DNA of 64,000 nt from NCBI GenBank assembly GCA_026396675.1, contig JAPLWI010000008.1, forward strand, positions 42,883-106,882. Direction: 5' to 3'. The position numbers were made by a program, and so were the translations under genes. Below the pieces are notes generated by a model. The model did not search any database and was not told the origin of the DNA. It worked only from the letters and a program-made list of their open reading frames with translations. Below are positions 2,634-31,441 of the stretch, in pieces. Within the stretch, counting starts at the first letter, position 1. The number at the start of each line of letters is the position of its first letter. The DNA comes from Candidatus Kaiserbacteria bacterium. GTDB taxonomy: Bacteria; Patescibacteriota; Minisyncoccia; Phycocordibacterales; Phycocordibacteraceae.

Positions 2634-4384
2634 ACCCCATTAGAAATCTGATTTCTAATGGGGTGAATAAAGAATTGCGGGAACGACTTACGCGTATTCA
2701 GAACATTCCAGTTCTTGAACGTTTCAACGAACGCATTCGCGCTTTTTCTCCGAGCGATCGTATTATGTTTTATATTCTCGCGACCCTAGTCGGCATCGCC
2801 TCGCTTACAGGCCTTTATGCTCTTGAACAATCTCTCCTCAAACAAGTGCCCGCATACGGCGGAACGCTCGTTGAGGGCGAAGTAGGGAGTCCGCGATTTA
2901 TAAATCCACTTCTCGCTATCAGCGACGCCGACCGTGACCTTTCGGCACTCGCCTATGCCGGACTTATGGGCCTCTCTGGTTCTGGGAACCTAGTCCCAGT
3001 ACTCGCGAGCGACTATACTGTTTCAGCTGATGGAAAAGTGTATTCGTTTACCCTGCGTCCGAACGCTAAATTTTCAGACGGAGTGCCAGTTACAGCGCAG
3101 GATGTTGTCTTCACAATACAAAAAGCGCAGGATTCTGCACTAAAGAGTCCTGAATATGCGAACTGGTCGGGAATTATTGTTGAAGCTGTTGATTCGCATG
3201 TCGTGCGCTTCACTCTCCAAAAAGCGTATGCCCCTTTCCTAGGACTCACAACTTTAGGGATCCTACCTGCACACTTATGGCAGAACATATCAAACGAAGA
3301 ATTTGCATTCTCTACGCTCGAGACAAACCCAGTTGGAGCAGGGCCCTTCCGAGTAACGAGCGTTTCGCGTAATGCATCAGGACTCATACAGAGTGTATCG
3401 CTTACACAGAACTCTTTTTATGCGCTTGGACGACCGTATCTTGACGGCATTCGTTTTGACTTCTATTCACGAACAGAAGATCTCGTCGGTGCTCTTGCTG
3501 GCGGCGGTATAGAGAGCGCGTATGACATCCATTCAAATGGAACGACAGTAACCGCTCCGTATGCACGTGTCTTCGGCGTGTTCTGGAATCCAAGCGAAAA
3601 ACAAGTGTACGCTCGCGCGGAGGTTCGTAAGGCGCTCTCGCTCGCGCTCGACCGAAAAACAATTGCCGATACGGTGCTTGGCGGTTATGCGACAGCAATT
3701 ATGGGTCCTGTGCCACCAGGAAGAAAGGTGGAGCAGGTTCCAATTCCGCAATCGAGTAATCCGACGGAAACGGCTGCGGGAATACTTAAGGCAGCCGGAT
3801 GGACATATGACAGTTCTGCGCGCATTTGGAAAAATATAGGTGCAAAACAAACAATCGATAGTATTACAATACGAACTTCAAATGTTCCTGAATTAAAAAA
3901 TGTGGCGAGTGCTGTGAAAGCGGATTGGGAAAAACTCGGTATTCCAGTTACAATCGAGCTCTACGAGCCGGGCGATCTCTCACAAAATGTAATCCGTCCG
4001 CGTAAGTATGAAGCGCTTCTCTACGGTATGGTCATCGGCCGCGATCAAGACCTGTATGCTTTCTGGGATTCACAAGAGCGCAACGACCCTGGTTTGAATA
4101 TTGCGCTTTATGCGAACAAGACAATTGATAATCTCCTCGAAGATGCACGTAGTTCTACGAGCGAACAAGAACGAACTGCAGATCTTCAGAAAATCGAGAA
4201 TCTTGTCGCCGCAGATTACCCCGCCGCATTCTTGTATGCACCGAATTTCGTCTACGCAGTGCCGAATGATCTACAGGGTGTTGAATTGCCACAAATTATA
4301 ACGCCGTCCGATCGTTTCGCTTCAGTCGCATCGTGGTATCGCGTGACCGATAAAGTGTGGCCATTTTTAGTAAATAAAAAATAA
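2630..4384 (+). CDS. ABC transporter substrate-binding protein, family 5 (oligopeptide/dipeptide/nickel-type), 584 aa
   Basis: An N-terminal TM/signal anchor is followed by a fold typical of OppA/DppA family-5 solute-binding proteins (…YTVSADGKVYSFTLRPNAKFSDGVPVTAQDVVFTIQKAQD…). Confidence 0.65.
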   Translation: MNPIRNLISNGVNKELRERLTRIQNIPVLERFNERIRAFSPSDRIMFYILATLVGIASLTGLYALEQSLLKQVPAYGGTLVEGEVGSPRFINPLLAISDADRDLSALAYAGLMGLSGSGNLVPVLASDYTVSADGKVYSFTLRPNAKFSDGVPVTAQDVVFTIQKAQDSALKSPEYANWSGIIVEAVDSHVVRFTLQKAYAPFLGLTTLGILPAHLWQNISNEEFAFSTLETNPVGAGPFRVTSVSRNASGLIQSVSLTQNSFYALGRPYLDGIRFDFYSRTEDLVGALAGGGIESAYDIHSNGTTVTAPYARVFGVFWNPSEKQVYARAEVRKALSLALDRKTIADTVLGGYATAIMGPVPPGRKVEQVPIPQSSNPTETAAGILKAAGWTYDSSARIWKNIGAKQTIDSITIRTSNVPELKNVASAVKADWEKLGIPVTIELYEPGDLSQNVIRPRKYEALLYGMVIGRDQDLYAFWDSQERNDPGLNIALYANKTIDNLLEDARSSTSEQERTADLQKIENLVAADYPAAFLYAPNFVYAVPNDLQGVELPQIITPSDRFASVASWYRVTDKVWPFLVNKK

Positions 4385-4395
4385 TTAACTTCTTT

Positions 4396-6360
4396 ATGAA
4401 TTCAGCACCAGCCCCGGCACCGAGTCCGGCAAATCCGAGTCCTTCGCGCGATGAACATTCTTTCTCTCGTCCTTCTTCTCCGCGGCGTTTTGACAAAAGA
4501 GGAAGTCGTCCACTTGGACAACGCCCGCCCGTAAGTTCGCCTCGCCGAGGATTTAGCGAGGCGAGTAGGAAGGGGCCACGCCCAGGAGGCGCAACGCGTC
4601 GAATTCAACGAATTCTTCGTCGCCCATCGGCGAACCCGACACATCGGATTAAGAGCGCCGATTACTTCCCTTCTCAGCCGAGCGCGACAACGGTTCGCAT
4701 TATTCCGCTCGGCGGAGTAGAAGAAGTGGGGCGCAACATGATTGCCGTTGAGGTCGGTGCGACCGGCGACATTCTCGTTTTCGATGCAGGTTTTCAATTC
4801 GTTTCCGAAGATGTGTCTCCGGGCGTTGATTATATTCTCCCAAACACAAAGTATCTTGAGAAGAATGCCGAGCGAGTGAAGGGGGTCATCATTACGCACG
4901 GACACCTCGATCACATCGGCGGTATTCCTTTCACATTGCCGCGTTTCGGGAACCCTCCTGTATACACTCAGAATCTCACTTCAATAATGATTCAGAAACG
5001 GCAAGAGGAATATCCAGATATCCCGAAGCCAGAATTGATAATCGTTGAAATCGGCCAAACTGTAACTATCGGTAAGACGCGCGTAAAATTTTTCCCAGTT
5101 ACGCATTCAATTCCCGACTCCATGGGCGTGTCAATTGAAACGCCGCAAGGCAACGTGGTCATCACCGGTGACTTGAAACTTGAACACGATGACGGCATTC
5201 CTTCAGAACGCGAGGTAAAGACCTGGGGCGATATCGGCAAAGACAATAATATTTTCTTTATCGCCGATTCGACGAACGCCGAAAAAGACGGGTTCTCTAT
5301 TCCCGAGAAACGCGTCATTCAAACGTTGGAAGATATTGTGAAGACGGTTTCCGGACGCCTTATTATCGGCACTTTCGCTTCGCAATTTGAGCGCATGATT
5401 CATATCATAGAGATAGCGGAAAAATTGCATAAAAAAGTCGTTACTGAAGGTCGCTCCATCAAAACCAACCTTGAAATCGCAGAAAAAGTTGGGCTTTTGA
5501 AGATTAATAAAGATACTCTCATTCCCGCACAAGATATCGGGGACTATCCGCCAGATAAAATCGTCATTCTTTCAACCGGCGCACAGGGAGAAGAATTCGC
5601 CGCCTTGATGCGTATCGCAACCAAACAGCATAAATACATCATGCTTTCTGAACGCGACACGATTGTACTTTCATCATCGGTTATTCCGGGAAATGAGCTC
5701 AATGTGCAGAAATTGAAGGATAATCTCTACCGTCATGGCGTTACGCTTATCAATTATCGTTCGTCGGATGTTCACTCGACTGGCCATGGCAACACAGGCG
5801 AACTCGTGTGGATTAATAAACAGGTTCATCCGAAATTCTTTATGCCCTCTTACGGCTACCATTCAATGCTTCGTTGCCACGCGAAGGCCGTCGAGCAATC
5901 GGGATTCCCTCGAGAAAACATCGTCATTCCTGACAATGGCTTCGTCATCGACATTGAAGATGGTGAACGGATGAATGTACACAAGCAGAAAGTACCCTCC
6001 ACACCGATGGTTGTTGACGGATTCAATATCGGTGATATACAGGAAGTCGTAATTCGTGATCGCCAGTCACTCGCGAAGGATGGTATGTTCGTCATCATCG
6101 CGAGCGTCAATCTTAAGACCGGCAAATTGCGTAAGTCGCCTGATATTATCAGCCGCGGCTTTATTTATCTGCGCGAATCGCAGAATCTTCTAAACGAAGC
6201 GCGCATTCTCATCAAAAAAACAGTTGAGGATTCAACACGCAATATGAATCCGATTGATTTGGATTATGTAAAAAATAATCTGACTGATGTAATGGCGGGC
6301 TACCTCTTCAATCGCACCAACAAAGCCCCGATGGTGATTCCTGTCCTGATTGGGATGTAA
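4396..6360 (+). CDS. rnj: ribonuclease J (metallo-beta-lactamase / beta-CASP) with a ~100-aa Arg/Pro/Ser-rich N-terminal extension
   Basis: VRIIPLGGVEEVGRNMIAVE...GVIITHGHLDHIGGIPF (HxHxDH motif), followed by beta-CASP and C-terminal RNase J domains. Confidence 0.85.
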   Translation: MNSAPAPAPSPANPSPSRDEHSFSRPSSPRRFDKRGSRPLGQRPPVSSPRRGFSEASRKGPRPGGATRRIQRILRRPSANPTHRIKSADYFPSQPSATTVRIIPLGGVEEVGRNMIAVEVGATGDILVFDAGFQFVSEDVSPGVDYILPNTKYLEKNAERVKGVIITHGHLDHIGGIPFTLPRFGNPPVYTQNLTSIMIQKRQEEYPDIPKPELIIVEIGQTVTIGKTRVKFFPVTHSIPDSMGVSIETPQGNVVITGDLKLEHDDGIPSEREVKTWGDIGKDNNIFFIADSTNAEKDGFSIPEKRVIQTLEDIVKTVSGRLIIGTFASQFERMIHIIEIAEKLHKKVVTEGRSIKTNLEIAEKVGLLKINKDTLIPAQDIGDYPPDKIVILSTGAQGEEFAALMRIATKQHKYIMLSERDTIVLSSSVIPGNELNVQKLKDNLYRHGVTLINYRSSDVHSTGHGNTGELVWINKQVHPKFFMPSYGYHSMLRCHAKAVEQSGFPRENIVIPDNGFVIDIEDGERMNVHKQKVPSTPMVVDGFNIGDIQEVVIRDRQSLAKDGMFVIIASVNLKTGKLRKSPDIISRGFIYLRESQNLLNEARILIKKTVEDSTRNMNPIDLDYVKNNLTDVMAGYLFNRTNKAPMVIPVLIGM

Positions 6361-6443
6361 AAACAAAAGGACTCTCCTCCGCTCTGCAAATTTCTTTGCA
6401 AAGTTTCAGAGAGTTCAAATGTAAAAAGATCAAAAAGAATTAG

Positions 6444-22115: not shown

Positions 22116-22520
22116 CTACCAAATTTCAAAAAGCTCTTCGCCGCCGACGTGGTTCTTCCTTGCTTCAACATCAGAAACGATACCGATGGAAGAAGAAAGA
22201 ATACGAGCACCAGTGCCGCCTTTTACACGATGTGCGGTAGTGTGCGGAGCGTAAAGTCGTCGACCTGGTTTGCTTACGCGCTTAACTCCACGCAATTTTG
22301 CTTCTCCGCGCCCATCGTATGCGAGCGTTACGACAAACGACTTTTTAACGCTATCGTTTTCTTTTGTCTTTATTTCTACAGCGGTAATGAACCCGAGTTC
22401 TTTAAGTTTTTCCGCTATGGAGACGAGGTGCGTTGAATACGGCATTATTACATCGCGCTTGCCGATGCGCGCGGCGTTCTGAAGACGGATAATAAAGTCC
22501 CCGACGCGGTCAGTTATCAT
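22116..22520 (-). CDS. rpsH: 30S ribosomal protein S8 (start taken at MITDRV; the ORF track extends to 22634)
   Basis: MITDRVGDFIIRLQNAARIGKRDVIMPYSTHLVSIAEKLKELGFI... matches S8. Confidence 0.9.
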   Translation of the reverse strand: MITDRVGDFIIRLQNAARIGKRDVIMPYSTHLVSIAEKLKELGFITAVEIKTKENDSVKKSFVVTLAYDGRGEAKLRGVKRVSKPGRRLYAPHTTAHRVKGGTGARILSSSIGIVSDVEARKNHVGGEELFEIW

Positions 22521-22539
22521 AGATAGTGAGGAAATGAAT

Positions 22540-22809
22540 CTACCATGATGCTTTTTTAACGCCCGGGATTTTTCCTTCGCGCGCAAGCTCGCGGAATTGA
22601 ATTCGCGAAAGGCCGAACGCGCGCATATAACCACGAGAGCGGCCAGTAATCGCGCAACGATTCTTCAGCCGCACCGGCGAGGAATTTCTAGGGAGCTTTT
22701 GAAGACCTTCGGAATCACCAGCCAATTTCAAAGCAGCACGCTTGACCGCGTACTTCTTCACGAGTTTCGCCTTTTTTGCGTATCTCGCCAGCTGGGATTT
22801 CTTAGCCAT
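22540..22809 (-). CDS. rpsN: 30S ribosomal protein S14 (start taken at [10 protein letters not shown])
   Basis: [28 protein letters not shown]...[43 protein letters not shown] matches S14. Confidence 0.9.
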
Positions 22810-22911
22810 GAAAAATAAATAGCCCCGAAGAGCGTGCTGACACTGTAGCAAATAGCGTCTGCGCCGTCAAACTGATTGAAAACAGGATTTTATGGGTGAC
22901 CAAAAGGAAAT

Positions 22912-22943
22912 CCCGTATTCTGCCGGAAAGGCCAGAATACGGG
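22912..22943 (-). terminator. strong hairpin CCCGTATTCTG-CCGGAAAGGC-CAGAATACGGG downstream of the inserted 72-aa ORF
   Basis: A perfect 11-bp stem, extendable, just after the stop at 22952 on the minus strand. Confidence 0.5.
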
Positions 22944-22951
22944 ATAAAATG

Positions 22952-23167
22952 TTAAAAAGATTTCTCGTACAGCTTTTCAAGACGAGGAGACAATCTGTTC
23001 CGTGCCTTAGGATGTACTGAGCTGGAAGGCAATCCTTTCTCGAGAACCTTATTCAGATGCCTGCGCCATTTCTTGCCTTCCGGATTGTCCTCAGACATTT
23101 TGAACGCAGCCCTCGCGAGTATTTCTTCACCAAGCTTCGATAACGTTGATCCTAGAATTCTTTTCAT
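22952..23167 (-). CDS. small basic hypothetical protein (72 aa) inserted between rplE and rpsN
   Basis: A strong SD GGAAGGAG lies 8 nt upstream of the ATG. MKRILGSTLSKLGEEILARAAFKMSEDNPEGKKWRRHLNKVLEKGLPSSSVHPKARNRLSPRLEKLYEKSF. No family was recognised. Confidence 0.4.
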   Translation of the reverse strand: MKRILGSTLSKLGEEILARAAFKMSEDNPEGKKWRRHLNKVLEKGLPSSSVHPKARNRLSPRLEKLYEKSF

Positions 23168-23301
23168 TTCTCTCACTCCTTCCCTTTTTATTTTAAGACC
23201 TTTCTGGTTGATAGAGTATATAAAGATGACTGTTCTGTCAACAACGAAAACAAATTGTAAACGCCGCGGGTTAGCGCGGCGTTCAGATAATGAGCGACGA
23301 T

Positions 23302-23583
23302 TTACCTCCTCCGTAAAACCTTGGCAAAAATCCGTACTTCGTCTCCTGGTTCTACTGGCATATAGTTCCTGAGAGACCCTCTCTTTTTCGAAAGTTTCCT
23401 TTCAAATTTCCCGAAAAGACTGTTCGCCTTGGTTCTGGCGGCCTCCAAGTTGGGGGATTTAAACCTCTCGAAAAGAGAAAGGGACTTCGGCCTTGTGTCT
23501 TCGACACTGTCTAAACCCATACCAGATGGACGTACAAAGATTTCACGCCACTTCACATTCGCAATAACCATATATTCTTCCAT
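23302..23583 (-). CDS. small hypothetical protein (93 aa) inserted between rplE and rpsN
   Basis: A strong SD GGAGGT is upstream of the ATG. MEEYMVIANVKWREIFVRPSGMGLDSVEDTRPKSLSLFERF...EVRIFAKVLRRR. No family was recognised. Confidence 0.4.
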   Translation of the reverse strand: MEEYMVIANVKWREIFVRPSGMGLDSVEDTRPKSLSLFERFKSPNLEAARTKANSLFGKFERKLSKKRGSLRNYMPVEPGDEVRIFAKVLRRR

Positions 23584-23619
23584 CGTTTAACCTCCAACCA
23601 TTTTTTATGCTTCTGTGAG

Positions 23620-23639
23620 CTAATTTAGCACTAAATTAG
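23620..23639. promoter_or_regulatory. near-perfect 20-bp DNA palindrome CTAATTTAG-CA-CTAAATTAG overlapping the rplE stop codon
   Basis: Read directly. The 2-nt centre makes a tight RNA hairpin unlikely, so it more plausibly serves as a protein-binding site. Confidence 0.3.
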
Positions 23640-24178
23640 TCCTTGTCAACAATCAGCGGCACGCCAATATGGCGGAGGAATGCCTCAGCTTCGGACTTCG
23701 ATTTGGCTGTGGTAACGATTGTAACTGCAAAACCGAATACATCTTTCAGGTCTTCATCGGAGGTCTCTGGGAAAATAGTGTGCTCACGGATACCGATAGT
23801 GAGATTACCCATATCATCAATTGCTTTCGCAGAGAGTCCGCGGAAGTCGCGAGTGCGTGGAAACGCGATGTGAATAAGTTTGTCCAAAAAGTCGTACATC
23901 CGTGCGCCACGCATTGTTATCTGAAGACCAACAGTGTCGCCCTCACGCACTTTGAACGACGCAATGGAAAGGCGCGCAGAACGAGGGGATGGTTTCTGTC
24001 CAGTAATTTTCGCGAGTCGATCTTCGATGGTCTCCAGTTGTTTTTTGTCGCGCTTCTTGCCAACGCCCGAAGATACAATGACTTTCTGTATACGCGGACT
24101 CTGCATCGGGCTCGTGTAGCCGAATGTTTCTGCGAGTGCGAGATACGCTGTTTGCTGTTTTTGTTTGGTGATAGACAT
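23636..24178 (-). CDS. rplE: 50S ribosomal protein L5
   Basis: MSITKQKQQTAYLALAETFGYTSPMQSPRIQKVIVSSGVGK... matches L5. Confidence 0.9.
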   Translation of the reverse strand: MSITKQKQQTAYLALAETFGYTSPMQSPRIQKVIVSSGVGKKRDKKQLETIEDRLAKITGQKPSPRSARLSIASFKVREGDTVGLQITMRGARMYDFLDKLIHIAFPRTRDFRGLSAKAIDDMGNLTIGIREHTIFPETSDEDLKDVFGFAVTIVTTAKSKSEAEAFLRHIGVPLIVDKD

Positions 24179-24855: not shown

Positions 24856-25197
24856 TTATTTCGTAGGGCGAGACGAGGTGACTCCTTGCTTCAAGGTGTC
24901 ACCTCGGCCTGCAATCTTGAAATGCTTCATTTTCGAAATTGGGCGAGTTGCCACAATGGTTACTGTGTCACCAATCTGTGCGATATTGCCCTGGTCGTGC
25001 ACGAGATAATTTTTTGACCGCACGAAATACTTTTTATATTTTGCGTTCTTCACAAAGCGATTAACACGGACAACGGCAGTATCTTTCGCCGCCGTTCTAA
25101 CGACAACTCCAGTAAATGATTGTGGACGAGCCGAAGGCACTGAGCTTGCCTGCGGTGAGCTTGTCGAACTCGTCGAATGTGTAGTGTTTTGTTCCAT
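24856..25197 (-). CDS. rpsQ: 30S ribosomal protein S17 with a Ser/Thr-rich N-terminal extension (start taken at MEQNTT; the ORF track extends to 25353)
   Basis: …FTGVVVRTAAKDTAVVRVNRFVKNAKYKKYFVRSKNYLVHDQGNIAQIGDTVTIVATRPISKMKHF… matches S17. Confidence 0.85.
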   Translation of the reverse strand: MEQNTTHSTSSTSSPQASSVPSARPQSFTGVVVRTAAKDTAVVRVNRFVKNAKYKKYFVRSKNYLVHDQGNIAQIGDTVTIVATRPISKMKHFKIAGRGDTLKQGVTSSRPTK

Positions 25198-25201
25198 ACA
25201 A

Positions 25202-25420
25202 TTATGCGGAGCGGGTCGCAGATCCTGAGCTGAGCGAACGGGCGGACTGTTCAGTGAGTATGCGCGCAATTTCTGCGCGAAATTTCTTCGGGGAGTTGCT
25301 GTCCTTTGGACGTGCACCGGCCGCCGCAAATCGCTCGGTACGCAGGAGCGCACGCGTGTCAGCGAGAAGTTTAGAAAGCTCTTGTTCTGTCTTTGTCGTC
25401 ATTGATTCCCTTTTTGTCAT
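25202..25420 (-). CDS. rpmC: 50S ribosomal protein L29
   Basis: …EQELSKLLADTRALLRTERFAAAGARPKDSNSPKKFRAEIARILT… matches L29. Confidence 0.8.
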   Translation of the reverse strand: MTKRESMTTKTEQELSKLLADTRALLRTERFAAAGARPKDSNSPKKFRAEIARILTEQSARSLSSGSATRSA

Positions 25421-29363: not shown

Positions 29364-30029
29364 TTACTTAGATGCACCGTGCTTACGCGCAGGAACGGAC
29401 ACGACCTCAAGAAGTGTGCCGCGATGTCCCGGTACTGCACCAGAAACAATTATCTTTCCTGCCTTCACATCGACCGCAAGAATCTTCAAATTCTCGACCG
29501 TCACGCGATCGGCACCCATCCGACCGGCCATGCGAATGCCCTTGGCTACACGACCACCTGCACGGCCACCTGATCCGCCGATGGAGCCCGGCTCGCGCTC
29601 GGAGTGCTTCTGTCCGTGCGAGCGCGGACCGCCGTGGAAACCGTGACGCTTTACTCCACCGGCAAAACCTTTTCCTTTTGTGAGTCCTGAGACACGAACT
29701 ATATCGCCGACAGCGAAGATTGACGCGTCGATCGTACTCCCAACTTCGGTCGCATTGTTTCCCTCGACTGAAGTTCCAAATGGTACGGGGAATTCTCGAA
29801 TGGCTGAATAGCCCTTCCCGCCAGTGTGCCCAAGAACTGCCTTGCTGATATTTTTTGTTTTGCGTGTGCCGAAACCAATCTGAACTGCCGAGTATTTATC
29901 CTTGCCATCCTTCGTCTTCACTTGGGTAACGACGACCGGATCGGCAACGAGAATAGTCCCCGCGCGCGCGCGACCATCATCCGCGAAAACGCGGGTCATT
30001 CCTTCTTTTTTTGCGAGAATGAATTTCAT
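29364..30029 (-). CDS. rplC: 50S ribosomal protein L3
   Basis: MKFILAKKEGMTRVFADDGRARAGTILVADPVVVTQVKTKDGKDKYSAVQIGFG... matches L3. Confidence 0.9.
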   Translation of the reverse strand: MKFILAKKEGMTRVFADDGRARAGTILVADPVVVTQVKTKDGKDKYSAVQIGFGTRKTKNISKAVLGHTGGKGYSAIREFPVPFGTSVEGNNATEVGSTIDASIFAVGDIVRVSGLTKGKGFAGGVKRHGFHGGPRSHGQKHSEREPGSIGGSGGRAGGRVAKGIRMAGRMGADRVTVENLKILAVDVKAGKIIVSGAVPGHRGTLLEVVSVPARKHGASK

Positions 30030-30037
30030 TTTTTAAA

Positions 30038-30073
30038 GCAAATCGCCCCAGCAGATCGCGTGGGGCGATTTGC
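30038..30073 (-). promoter_or_regulatory. perfect 13-bp hairpin GCAAATCGCCCCA-(10 nt)-TGGGGCGATTTGC ending 8 nt upstream of the rplC start codon
   Basis: The minus-strand RNA would read hairpin-UUUAAAA-AUG(rplC). It is either a terminator for the inserted upstream gene or a leader attenuator / translational operator. Confidence 0.5.
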
Positions 30074-30141
30074 TGGAGGTCCCTCGTGGGACATAGCGAT
30101 TTAGGCACTCTACACGAAAGGATTAAAAGATGCAAGAAATT

Positions 30142-30864
30142 CTACTGGGCAAGTAATTTTTGCAAGTTTGTAATTCTTCCAACCATTCGTTCTTTGTCCG
30201 CGCCAGATAAATAGCTGGTATCAAAAGACACCAATTGGTCGCTAAGATTTTTCTTTTGATCTGAACTCATTGCGCTCACTTTCGACGATAGAGAATCAAG
30301 TGCTGTTAAGCGTACGTCAATTGCAATGGATTCATTACGTGCAATGGACATCATCTTATCCATGAACGATGCGACGTCAGTTTCTGCTTTCGCCATCACC
30401 ATAATCGCGTTCATGGCAACTGATTCCCTGCGAAAATCTTCTCCTGTTCTTTGTGTTCCTTCTGGAAGGGCTTTCGCGGCATGGATGTCGGAATCTGCGG
30501 ACTTGAGCGCTGCTTGAAAAGTCTGCTGATCTTTTATGAGTCCATACACGGTCGGAAGTATTACGAGCATCGAAACGAGAATGATTATTACCCCTGGGTT
30601 TTCTCTGCCAATTTTTCTAAGGACAGCGTGTATTATCCAACCGTAAACGAAGAACACTACAGGTAGAGTGAAGAGAGCAATTACATAAAATAGAAGTCCG
30701 TAGCTGAAAAAGTCACCAACAAACGGAATTACCCATGAGATAGGGTTCAACAGGAAGATCTTCGAACTTTCCCAAGCAGGAAAAGATACTATCCCTAAAG
30801 CAAAACCGGCCCAGCTTCCCAACATTTTAAACGGGTTGTATGATTTTTTTATTTCTTGTGGCAT
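30142..30864 (-). CDS. hypothetical polytopic membrane protein (240 aa) inserted between rpsJ and rplC
   Basis: Four TM helices are followed by a soluble C-terminal domain. No family was recognised. Confidence 0.45.
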   Translation of the reverse strand: MPQEIKKSYNPFKMLGSWAGFALGIVSFPAWESSKIFLLNPISWVIPFVGDFFSYGLLFYVIALFTLPVVFFVYGWIIHAVLRKIGRENPGVIIILVSMLVILPTVYGLIKDQQTFQAALKSADSDIHAAKALPEGTQRTGEDFRRESVAMNAIMVMAKAETDVASFMDKMMSIARNESIAIDVRLTALDSLSSKVSAMSSDQKKNLSDQLVSFDTSYLSGADKERMVGRITNLQKLLAQ

Positions 30865-30886
30865 GAATTCAAGATTAGCATGAAAA

Positions 30887-30939
30887 ATCCCGCCTTGAAG
30901 GCGGGATTTTTCGTAAGTTAGGACACTCGGTGTCCTAAC
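30887..30939. terminator. tandem hairpins: AAAA-ATCCCGCC-TTGAA-GGCGGGAT-TTTT (bidirectional terminator) then GTTAGGACAC-TCG-GTGTCCTAAC
   Basis: They lie directly downstream of rpsJ on the minus strand and separate tuf-rpsJ from the inserted membrane gene and rplC. Confidence 0.7.
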
Positions 30940-31006
30940 TTTTAAACCATTCCCTCGATTGACTCGGGATTAGTTAAAACCATAGTCGCGCGGACACTCC
31001 TTGGTT

Positions 31007-31441
31007 TTATACCATCTTTACATCAATCGTGACGCCGGAGGGGAGATTGAGGTTCGTGAGGGCTTCAACAACCTTTGACGATGGGTTCATGATGTCGATA
31101 AGGCGCTTGTGGATGCGCATCTCGAATTGCTCGCGTGCGTCCTTATGAACGAAGGTTGAGCGATTTACCGTCCAACGCTTAATCTCAGTCGGAAGCGGTA
31201 CTGGGCCAACGACCACCGCATCAAAGCGTGCAGCAGTGTCCATAATTTGCTTCACCGAAAGGTCAAGAATCTTGTGTTCATACGCACAGACGCGAATGCG
31301 CAGTTTATGTTCCGCAACGATAGTTGCAACGGCTTCTTTTTTCTTTCTCGGAGCCGCGACTTTCTTACTCTCCGTAACTTTTGAGGGAGAAGGTTTCGTT
31401 TTTGGCTTTGCTTTTGGCTTTGTGGCTGTCGCTTTAGGCAT
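31007..31441 (-). CDS. rpsJ: 30S ribosomal protein S10 with a ~40-aa Lys/Pro-rich N-terminal extension
   Basis: …HKLRIRVCAYEHKILDLSVKQIMDTAARFDAVVVGPVPLPTEIKRWTVNRSTFVHKDAREQFEMRIHKRLIDIM… matches S10. Confidence 0.9.
   Translation of the reverse strand: MPKATATKPKAKPKTKPSPSKVTESKKVAAPRKKKEAVATIVAEHKLRIRVCAYEHKILDLSVKQIMDTAARFDAVVVGPVPLPTEIKRWTVNRSTFVHKDAREQFEMRIHKRLIDIMNPSSKVVEALTNLNLPSGVTIDVKMV

Follow-up and report, generated by a model that had tools for sequence, protein, structure and literature searches.

Two Probable Accessory Genes between rplE and rpsN in a Candidatus Kaiserbacteria Ribosomal Cluster and a Probable Insertion Hotspot in Parcubacteria

Introduction

Bacterial pangenomes contain integration and recombination hotspots between core genes, and horizontal transfer of the gene for ribosomal protein S14 was reported earlier. 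In the ribosomal operon cluster of Gammaproteobacteria and Bacilli, disruption usually begins with small insertions at operon boundaries, and full disconnection follows (PMC8046335), and rpsN, which encodes S14, can itself be exchanged by recombination within the spc operon (Brandis 2021, PMC8046335). Here we analyse a 64,000-nt stretch of a Candidatus Kaiserbacteria genome (contig JAPLWI010000008.1), called hereafter the window, whose coordinates are used throughout unless another contig is named. Its ribosomal genes lie on the minus strand, and rplE, encoding L5, is separated from rpsN by a gap of 826 bp. The only open reading frames (ORFs) inside this gap are two small ones, ORF-A and ORF-B. 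A first reading, made from the sequence alone and called below the sequence-only reading, had offered three possibilities for them: a ribosome-associated factor pair, a toxin-antitoxin-like pair, or a mobile insertion.

The last of the three fits best. Relative to 17 near relatives with spacers of 54–61 bp, the gap is an insertion. We consider it probable, from sequence comparison, that the gap consists of two independent single-gene accessory units, located at a clade-wide transcription-unit boundary that is a hotspot of insertion and exchange. As in the disruptions described for Gammaproteobacteria and Bacilli (PMC8046335), the inserts are a few unrelated genes, relatives carry them patchily, and distant relatives show a full break at the same point. 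Unlike in those, the break lies inside the spc operon of E. coli and Bacilli (rplE|rpsN) instead of between named operons, it recurs across a whole clade within the candidate phyla radiation (CPR) bacteria, and a conserved internal promoter of rpsN lies at the same place. Replacement of rpsN (Brandis 2021, PMC8046335) shows that the rplE-rpsN-rpsH segment takes foreign DNA without harm to its neighbours; in contrast to that case, rpsN is here vertical, and extra genes were added instead of one being swapped. No paper describing a hotspot at rplE-rpsN in CPR bacteria was found in the literature searched, and the clade-wide breakpoint with its internal promoter is apparently undescribed in Parcubacteria.

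Results and Discussion

With L5 as query, we collected the locus from Kaiserbacteria and other Parcubacteria, 80 species-level genomes in all. The length of the rplE-rpsN (L5|S14) gap varied from 54 to 2920 bp; of 58 species, 30 had a gap longer than 120 bp, and in 24 it was longer than 300 bp. At the six neighbouring junctions (L14|L24, L24|L5, S14|S8, S8|L6, L6|L18 and L18|S5), zero to three cases above 120 bp were counted, and none above 300 bp. About 15 further species had no S14 or S8 within 1.9–3 kb after rplE, the cluster being fully broken there. The premise of the sequence-only reading, that rplE and rpsN are contiguous in virtually all bacteria, thus fails in this clade. The synteny comparison that it proposed, run here, bears out an insertion, with empty sites in close relatives and differing cargo elsewhere.

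The empty sites were found in 17 close relatives, whose L5 is 76–90% identical to that of the window. A neighbour-joining tree of six ribosomal proteins placed the window, a contig from the Joint Genome Institute (JGI; L001) and L016 in one clade of filled sites with three different contents, while the filled sites of L009, L027 and L028 were scattered among empty-site genomes. The sister L016 has neither ORF-A nor ORF-B, and carries a different 97-aa ORF instead. Overall, the cargo was unrelated across species apart from two small families, and consisted mostly of orphans; in L063 it is a LuxR-type regulator.

Inspection of the empty spacers revealed a fixed architecture, ...atcGTTGACtcgggcgtaaaacgcTGAtaTTCT...ACGCTCTTCGGAGCTTTATTTTTTatg, in which the −35 box (TTGAC) lies in the V-D codons of rplE and the −10 box (TATTCT) after the rplE stop, followed by a small hairpin and a U-rich leader without Shine-Dalgarno (SD) sequence. 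Filled-site relatives have a free-standing promoter, GTTTGACGG-N-TGATACATT, ahead of the same leader, and both the window and L001 are of this type. The motif TTGACN-N13-16-TGNTANNNT was present at most 100 nt upstream of rpsN in 40 of 58 species, versus 21 of 1160 random control windows (1.8%). Because this promoter is clade-wide and includes the empty-site relatives, it is not a result of the insertion. The sequence-only reading had proposed that the insertion implies a separate promoter for rpsN; the promoter is there, and the causal order is not the one supposed. We infer that rplE|rpsN is a transcription-unit boundary that predates the insertion. Expression of rpsN would then be independent of read-through from rplE, so that inserted DNA would be tolerated and each lineage could hold different cargo.

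Some side observations concern this promoter and leader. The promoter is of the extended −10 type, TTGACN...TGnTAnnnT (window 22810–22870; L001, L008–L055), and is followed by a hairpin of 4–5 bp, rich in G+C, with a UUCG-type loop. Compensatory changes in this hairpin were seen in a few species (L030, L031, L042). Together with the U-tract, it could also act as a weak terminator of rplE read-through. Finally, comparison of L017 with its near-identical sister L012 shows 81 bp inserted between the rpsN leader and the rpsN ATG (3586–3666 of L017); this insert, in which there is a long inverted repeat, GGGGAAGAGAAG...CTTCTCTTCCCC, may represent a miniature palindromic element.

The history of the insert was examined by aligning the window with L001. 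Homology fell into three blocks: the rplE 3′ end (82% identity), ORF-A with its 5′ untranslated region (88%), and a segment from the rpsN promoter through rpsH (82%). The ORF-A block runs from the predicted +1, 7 nt after the −10 box, to the stop codon. Between ORF-A and the rpsN promoter, L001 has about 52 bp with one hairpin, whereas the window has about 425 bp carrying ORF-B; the short spacer of L001 implies that ORF-B is either a further gain in the lineage of the window or a loss in that of L001. On the rplE side of ORF-A, L001 has a PaaX-like gene that is bordered by a duplication of the rplE 3′ end. A relic of the rplE 3′ end was looked for within the gap of the window, and none was found.

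Synonymous divergence (pS) between the two genomes was 0.21 for ORF-A, as against 0.67 for rplE, 0.52 for rpsN and 0.64 for rpsH. The rpsN gene itself is vertical (95% identical to that of L001, with a high synonymous substitution rate, dS). The low pS of ORF-A points to a more recent common ancestor than that of the backbone, which would mean lateral exchange; the alternative is constraint at the nucleotide level. An antisense gene opposite ORF-A was considered as the cause of the low dS and rejected, since in both species a stop codon interrupts the mirror frame, whose omega is simply a reflection of the value in the sense frame.

The junction thus has the same core flanks around variable content, a variability specific to it, and an insert history unlike that of the flanks; on these grounds it reads as a hotspot. 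Like the hotspots of pangenomes, it combines conserved core flanks, variable orphan or defence/mobile cargo (HicAB, a retroelement, a Cas2-like regulator) and discordant divergence of insert and flanks. Unlike them, its inserts are tiny (0.1–3 kb, 1–3 genes), usually recombinase-less, and lodged in the gene cluster that is the most conserved of the genome. By themselves, the two ORFs are orphan genes of no special note; the wider pattern at the junction is of more use. In Parcubacteria, a conserved internal promoter would split the textbook spc operon after rplE, at a point of recurrent gene gain, exchange and eventual break-up. For binning, phylogenomics and contig validation by ribosomal-protein synteny in CPR bacteria, this means that rplE and rpsN are often not adjacent. 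The junction also offers a natural test of how transcription-unit boundaries in ribosomal-protein clusters shape the landing of new genes.

Some of the cargo elsewhere could be recognised. L070 carries a bAvd-like gene, a reverse transcriptase (RVT_1) and a 213-aa orphan at rplE-rpsN (3552–6418 of that contig), which are components of a diversity-generating retroelement. The Nomurabacteria contig L076 has a HicB-like/HicA pair of overlapping genes at the same place (3634–4102), in contrast to the two separate units of the window. In L067, L071, L074 and other distant Parcubacteria, judging by the look of the translations, rplE is followed by genes such as adk-map, ABC permeases or def; in L067, the genes after rplE resemble adk and map.

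The layout of the window is given in Table 1. An assembly artefact or chimera can be rejected: from L14 to L6, the window is matched at 100% identity by Logan contigs of six different sequencing runs, and the runs with an exact copy include SRR20698650/51 and ERR153021xx–ERR153022xx. Several details of the sequence-only reading could be adjusted. The separation of rplE and rpsN that it put at 780 bp is real and longer; its 93-aa protein stands, and its 72-aa protein has 71 residues. The strong SD sequence that it saw ahead of each ORF was found again, as was its 20-bp palindrome over the rplE stop. Its perfect 11-bp hairpin at 22912–22943 exists with longer arms, and it had overlooked the hairpin that follows ORF-A.

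Table 1. Positions of genes and predicted signals from rplE to rpsN in the window
Feature	Position	Strand	Evidence or remarks
rplE (ribosomal protein L5, 180 aa)	23636–24178	−	Pfam Ribosomal_L5 and L5_C (N- and C-terminal domains)
Promoter-like site for ORF-A, TTGACA-16-TAAATT, TG before −10	23622–23649	−	Consensus scan, 10/12 matches
Perfect 9-2-9 palindrome CTAATTTAGcaCTAAATTAG = CTAATTTAG-ca-CTAAATTAG	23620–23639		Spans ORF-A −10 box and rplE stop codon (23636–23638)
ORF-A, 93 aa, isoelectric point (pI) 10.4	23302–23583	−	SD GGAGGT at 23590–23595, 6 nt ahead of ATG
Terminator-like hairpin 3′ of ORF-A	23258–23285	−	11-bp stem, 7 G-C pairs, T-rich tail; folding energy (dG) −18.2 kcal/mol, z −3.3
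Putative weaker promoter of ORF-B, TTGACA-17-TACTCT	23213–23241	−	Read from sequence; under scan threshold
ORF-B, 71 aa, pI 10.4, predicted helical	22952–23167	−	ATG at 23167; SD GGAAGGAG at 23176–23183, 8 nt ahead of ATG
Strong terminator-like hairpin 3′ of ORF-B	22910–22945	−	13-bp perfect arms 22910–22922 and 22933–22945, then UUUCCUUUU; dG −23.7 kcal/mol, z −5.5
rpsN promoter, TTGACG-17-TACAGT, TG upstream of −10	22842–22870	−	Consensus scan; homologous site in L001
Small conserved hairpin GCUC-UUCG-GGGC at start of rpsN leader	22822–22833	−	30-species alignment and fold; then U-rich tract, ATG without SD
rpsN (ribosomal protein S14, long form, 89 aa)	22540–22809	−	Pfam Ribosomal_S14; first gene of downstream unit

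From this layout the following scheme can be proposed. RNA polymerase would transcribe ORF-A either by running on from the ribosomal genes upstream or by initiating at a hybrid promoter, for which the final codons of rplE (GTT GAC A, within the rplE coding sequence) provide the −35 box, and would stop at the hairpin behind ORF-A. ORF-B would be transcribed from its own weaker promoter and stopped at the strong hairpin that follows. Transcription of rpsN and the downstream genes would restart at the conserved rpsN promoter, beginning with the 5′ hairpin and the U-rich leader. The spacer between ORF-A and ORF-B (134 bp, 23168–23301) holds both the first terminator-like hairpin and a TTGACA box. 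The sequence-only reading had placed both proteins under ribosomal-operon expression; this may hold for ORF-A, which read-through could reach, and probably not for ORF-B, which lies behind a terminator.

The window has a single copy of the palindrome seen at the ORF-A promoter, versus 0.04 expected by chance; the palindrome was not conserved at the ORF-A promoter of L001. As an RNA hairpin it is weak (−4.5 to −5.8 kcal/mol, z −0.5), so that it would act at the DNA level if functional; it is possibly an operator. Searches of both strands of 22400–23900 against Rfam gave no matches. A 99-aa ORF on the plus strand (23073–23372) was rejected as a gene, since its codon score is poor and it extends across both terminators.

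In the public record, ORF-A is a hypothetical protein of a Candidatus Kaiserbacteria metagenome-assembled genome. Its closest relative, P0002 (86% identity), is encoded on L001, likewise between rplE and rpsN. The two copies differ by 13 synonymous and 14 non-synonymous changes, corresponding to a ratio of non-synonymous to synonymous rates (dN/dS) of 0.27, and by one in-frame 3-nt indel; the ORF-A frame is the sole one open in both, and the excess of synonymous changes had a binomial P of 0.002. A codon-usage log-odds score, trained on 47 long genes of the window, was highest in the own frame for both ORFs (0.031 for ORF-A, 0.009 for ORF-B). Both values exceed the 95th percentile of off-frame sequence, yet they are in the low tail of real genes. 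Since the scores are best in the annotated frames and above the off-frame percentile, ORF-A counts as a gene and ORF-B probably as one. On the sequence comparison, ORF-A thus qualifies as a real, selected, orphan protein-coding gene.

The family of ORF-A is very small. A HMMER scan of 1.84 billion representatives with an ORF-A profile added one distant relative, P0004 (E 2.5e-5), and a profile re-search from the family gave no further members, so that ORF-A and its two relatives are the only three among about 15 billion proteins. P0004 is encoded on L088–L090 (e.g. L089, 119–574) by a stand-alone gene with its own TTGACA promoter, beside a DUF3955 gene and in a non-ribosomal context. It has 151 aa, with an N-terminal extension containing CxxC and PCP motifs and a faint zinc-finger match (E 0.03–0.04); an internal Met at residue 64 would yield an 88-aa protein collinear with ORF-A. 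A faint lead to DUF6894 (E 0.04) was obtained for P0004 only.

The statement of the sequence-only reading that neither protein belongs to a recognisable family held. Pfam, PHROGs, NCBIfam and PADLOC gave no match for ORF-A or ORF-B at E values up to 1–10, and searches of Protein Data Bank (PDB) sequences gave nothing below E 0.1. Scans of metagenome and viral contigs were negative for both. AlphaFold models were of low confidence, with mean predicted local distance difference test (pLDDT) values of 58.7 and 56.6 (ORF-B 56.6, AlphaFold2). Kinship of ORF-A with PaaX-like proteins was tested and rejected, and so was a HicB-like fold (hhalign E 0.91 against a HicB). Both are small, basic and hydrophilic; our best guess is that they are non-essential accessory proteins, possibly nucleic-acid-binding.

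Several observations weigh against two accessory units having been inserted at a hotspot. The gap of the window contains no transposase, integrase or clear target-site duplication, and the 9-bp direct repeat TTGTTGACA, found at 23236–23244 and at the rplE end (23644–23652), is at chance level and contains the −35 consensus. The flanks of ORF-A, with its promoter and terminator, could not be aligned to L001, and the low pS is not fully explained by a simple recent transfer. ORF-B is without comparative support, and its codon score is marginal (0.009, versus about 0 for the 5th percentile of real genes). The promoters and terminators are no more than matches to a consensus, and the ORF-B promoter falls under the scan threshold. 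Finally, the location of two genes for small basic proteins in a ribosomal cluster could have a functional reason and not be incidental.

The status of ORF-B is the first point at which another explanation has to be weighed. It is possible, if doubtful, that ORF-B is a chance or decaying ORF in spacer DNA, perhaps the relic of a PaaX-like gene such as those found in sister lineages. ORF-B had no homologue in the two protein collections searched, nor any relative in metagenome or viral contigs; its only occurrences are in gene calls derived from Logan, and NCBI has an entry for ORF-A but none for ORF-B. Its codon score and its low-confidence model go in the same direction. A weak profile match linked it to the winged helix-turn-helix/Cas2-like linker of PaaX-like proteins (32 columns, P 0.003, probability 10%); the relic hypothesis was tested on this basis, and the match stayed a weak lead. 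In contrast, ORF-B has a strong SD at ideal spacing, a TTGACA box upstream and a very stable terminator-like hairpin directly after it, and its own frame scores far above the five others. Moreover, the PaaX-like genes of the relatives are on the opposite strand, upstream of ORF-A, and show no nucleotide similarity to ORF-B. We regard ORF-B as a probable young orphan gene.

The second question is how inserts enter the junction. The PaaX_M/Cas2-like protein encoded there in L001 (126–1005), L009 (3497–4335) and L016 (3488–4361) has 195–196 aa and an N-terminal membrane segment, and its gene is oriented opposite to the operon. In L001, two copies of an imperfect palindrome of about 36 bp, TCCCAATAA...CTATAG...GGGATA, surround this gene.

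Site-specific integration at the rplE 3′ end and the rpsN promoter, used as att-like sites, would bring in the inserts otherwise than by passive accumulation or homologous exchange. In all three contigs, the PaaX-like gene is flanked by a direct duplication of 44–57 bp of the rplE 3′ end (84–93% identity), and rplE ends in a tail supplied by the element, a pattern that classically marks integration at a gene's 3′ end. The palindromic repeats of L001, of which L016 has one similar copy, fit this scheme, as do the sharp edges of the ORF-A homology block and the (T)TTGAC box at which all units of the window begin. TTGAC, however, is simply the −35 consensus. None of the small inserts has a recombinase gene, the rplE end is not duplicated in the window, L027 or L028, and most cargo is restricted to a single species, which fits many unrelated events. 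Such integration seems unlikely. The PaaX-like units do look like the footprint of a tiny recombinase-less element integrating into the rplE 3′ end, and with their duplicated rplE ends they may signal an undescribed small integrating element. To see in the rplE 3′ end and the rpsN promoter a dedicated Parcubacteria landing site for such cassettes, of which the PaaX/Cas2-like units would be one example and ORF-A perhaps an exchanged cassette acting on the ribosome or on expression of the rpsN unit, would be a long shot.

The gap was also compared with autonomous mobile elements and with integron cassettes. Among its ORFs, which are ORF-A and ORF-B only and match no family, there is no transposase or integrase. 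Unlike integron cassettes, each unit has its own promoter-like site (no window-wide search for intI was made), and unlike attC sites, the 3′ hairpins have short, G+C-rich stems with T-runs behind them and differ entirely between the window and L001.

The proteins might instead be lineage-specific ribosome-associated factors, or regulators of the ribosomal operon, placed so as to be co-expressed with ribosomal proteins. The protein complement of CPR ribosomes is known to be unusual. Both ORFs encode small, basic proteins; purifying selection acts on ORF-A, which a second organism carries at this junction as well; and, as no terminator was found between rplE and ORF-A, ORF-A would be co-transcribed with L14-L24-L5. 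Both genes are, however, missing from all 17 closest empty-site relatives and from the sister L016, which makes a lineage-wide ribosome factor unlikely, and one of the three members of the ORF-A family lies outside any ribosomal context. No similarity in sequence or fold to a known ribosomal protein or factor was detected for either. The factor pair of the sequence-only reading is thus improbable.

Hardly credible is a single two-gene module, toxin-antitoxin or regulator-effector, autoregulated through the palindrome: the two genes are adjacent, small, basic and on the same strand, with a perfect palindrome over the −10 box of the first promoter as in type II toxin-antitoxin loci, and a true HicAB pair sits at the same junction in L076, but they form separate predicted transcription units divided by a terminator and a promoter, match no toxin-antitoxin or defence family (nor, by profile, HicB), and do not co-occur, ORF-A being found without ORF-B in L001 and, as its distant relative, beside the DUF3955 gene, which largely refutes the module and with it the toxin-antitoxin-like pair first suggested; nor is the palindrome kept at the ORF-A promoter of L001.

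Other Features of the Cluster

A second insertion was noticed in the same cluster, between rpsJ (31007–31441) and rplC (29364–30029). It consists of a 240-aa ORF (30142–30864, minus strand; flanks 30030–31006) with several long hydrophobic stretches, which is probably membrane-spanning and has no Pfam match. Two hairpins precede it, and it is followed, ahead of rplC, by a TTGCAT-17-TAGAGT promoter-like site and a long leader hairpin.

In four ribosomal genes, all on the minus strand, the Pfam domain starts deep inside the longest ORF: at residue 48 of 144 for S10 (31007–31441), 87 of 292 for L4 (28571–29449), 37 of 124 for L23 (28190–28564), and 82 of 165 for S17 (24856–25353), the latter with a Ser/Thr-rich stretch. 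These late starts reflect either N-terminal extensions or over-long ORF calls.

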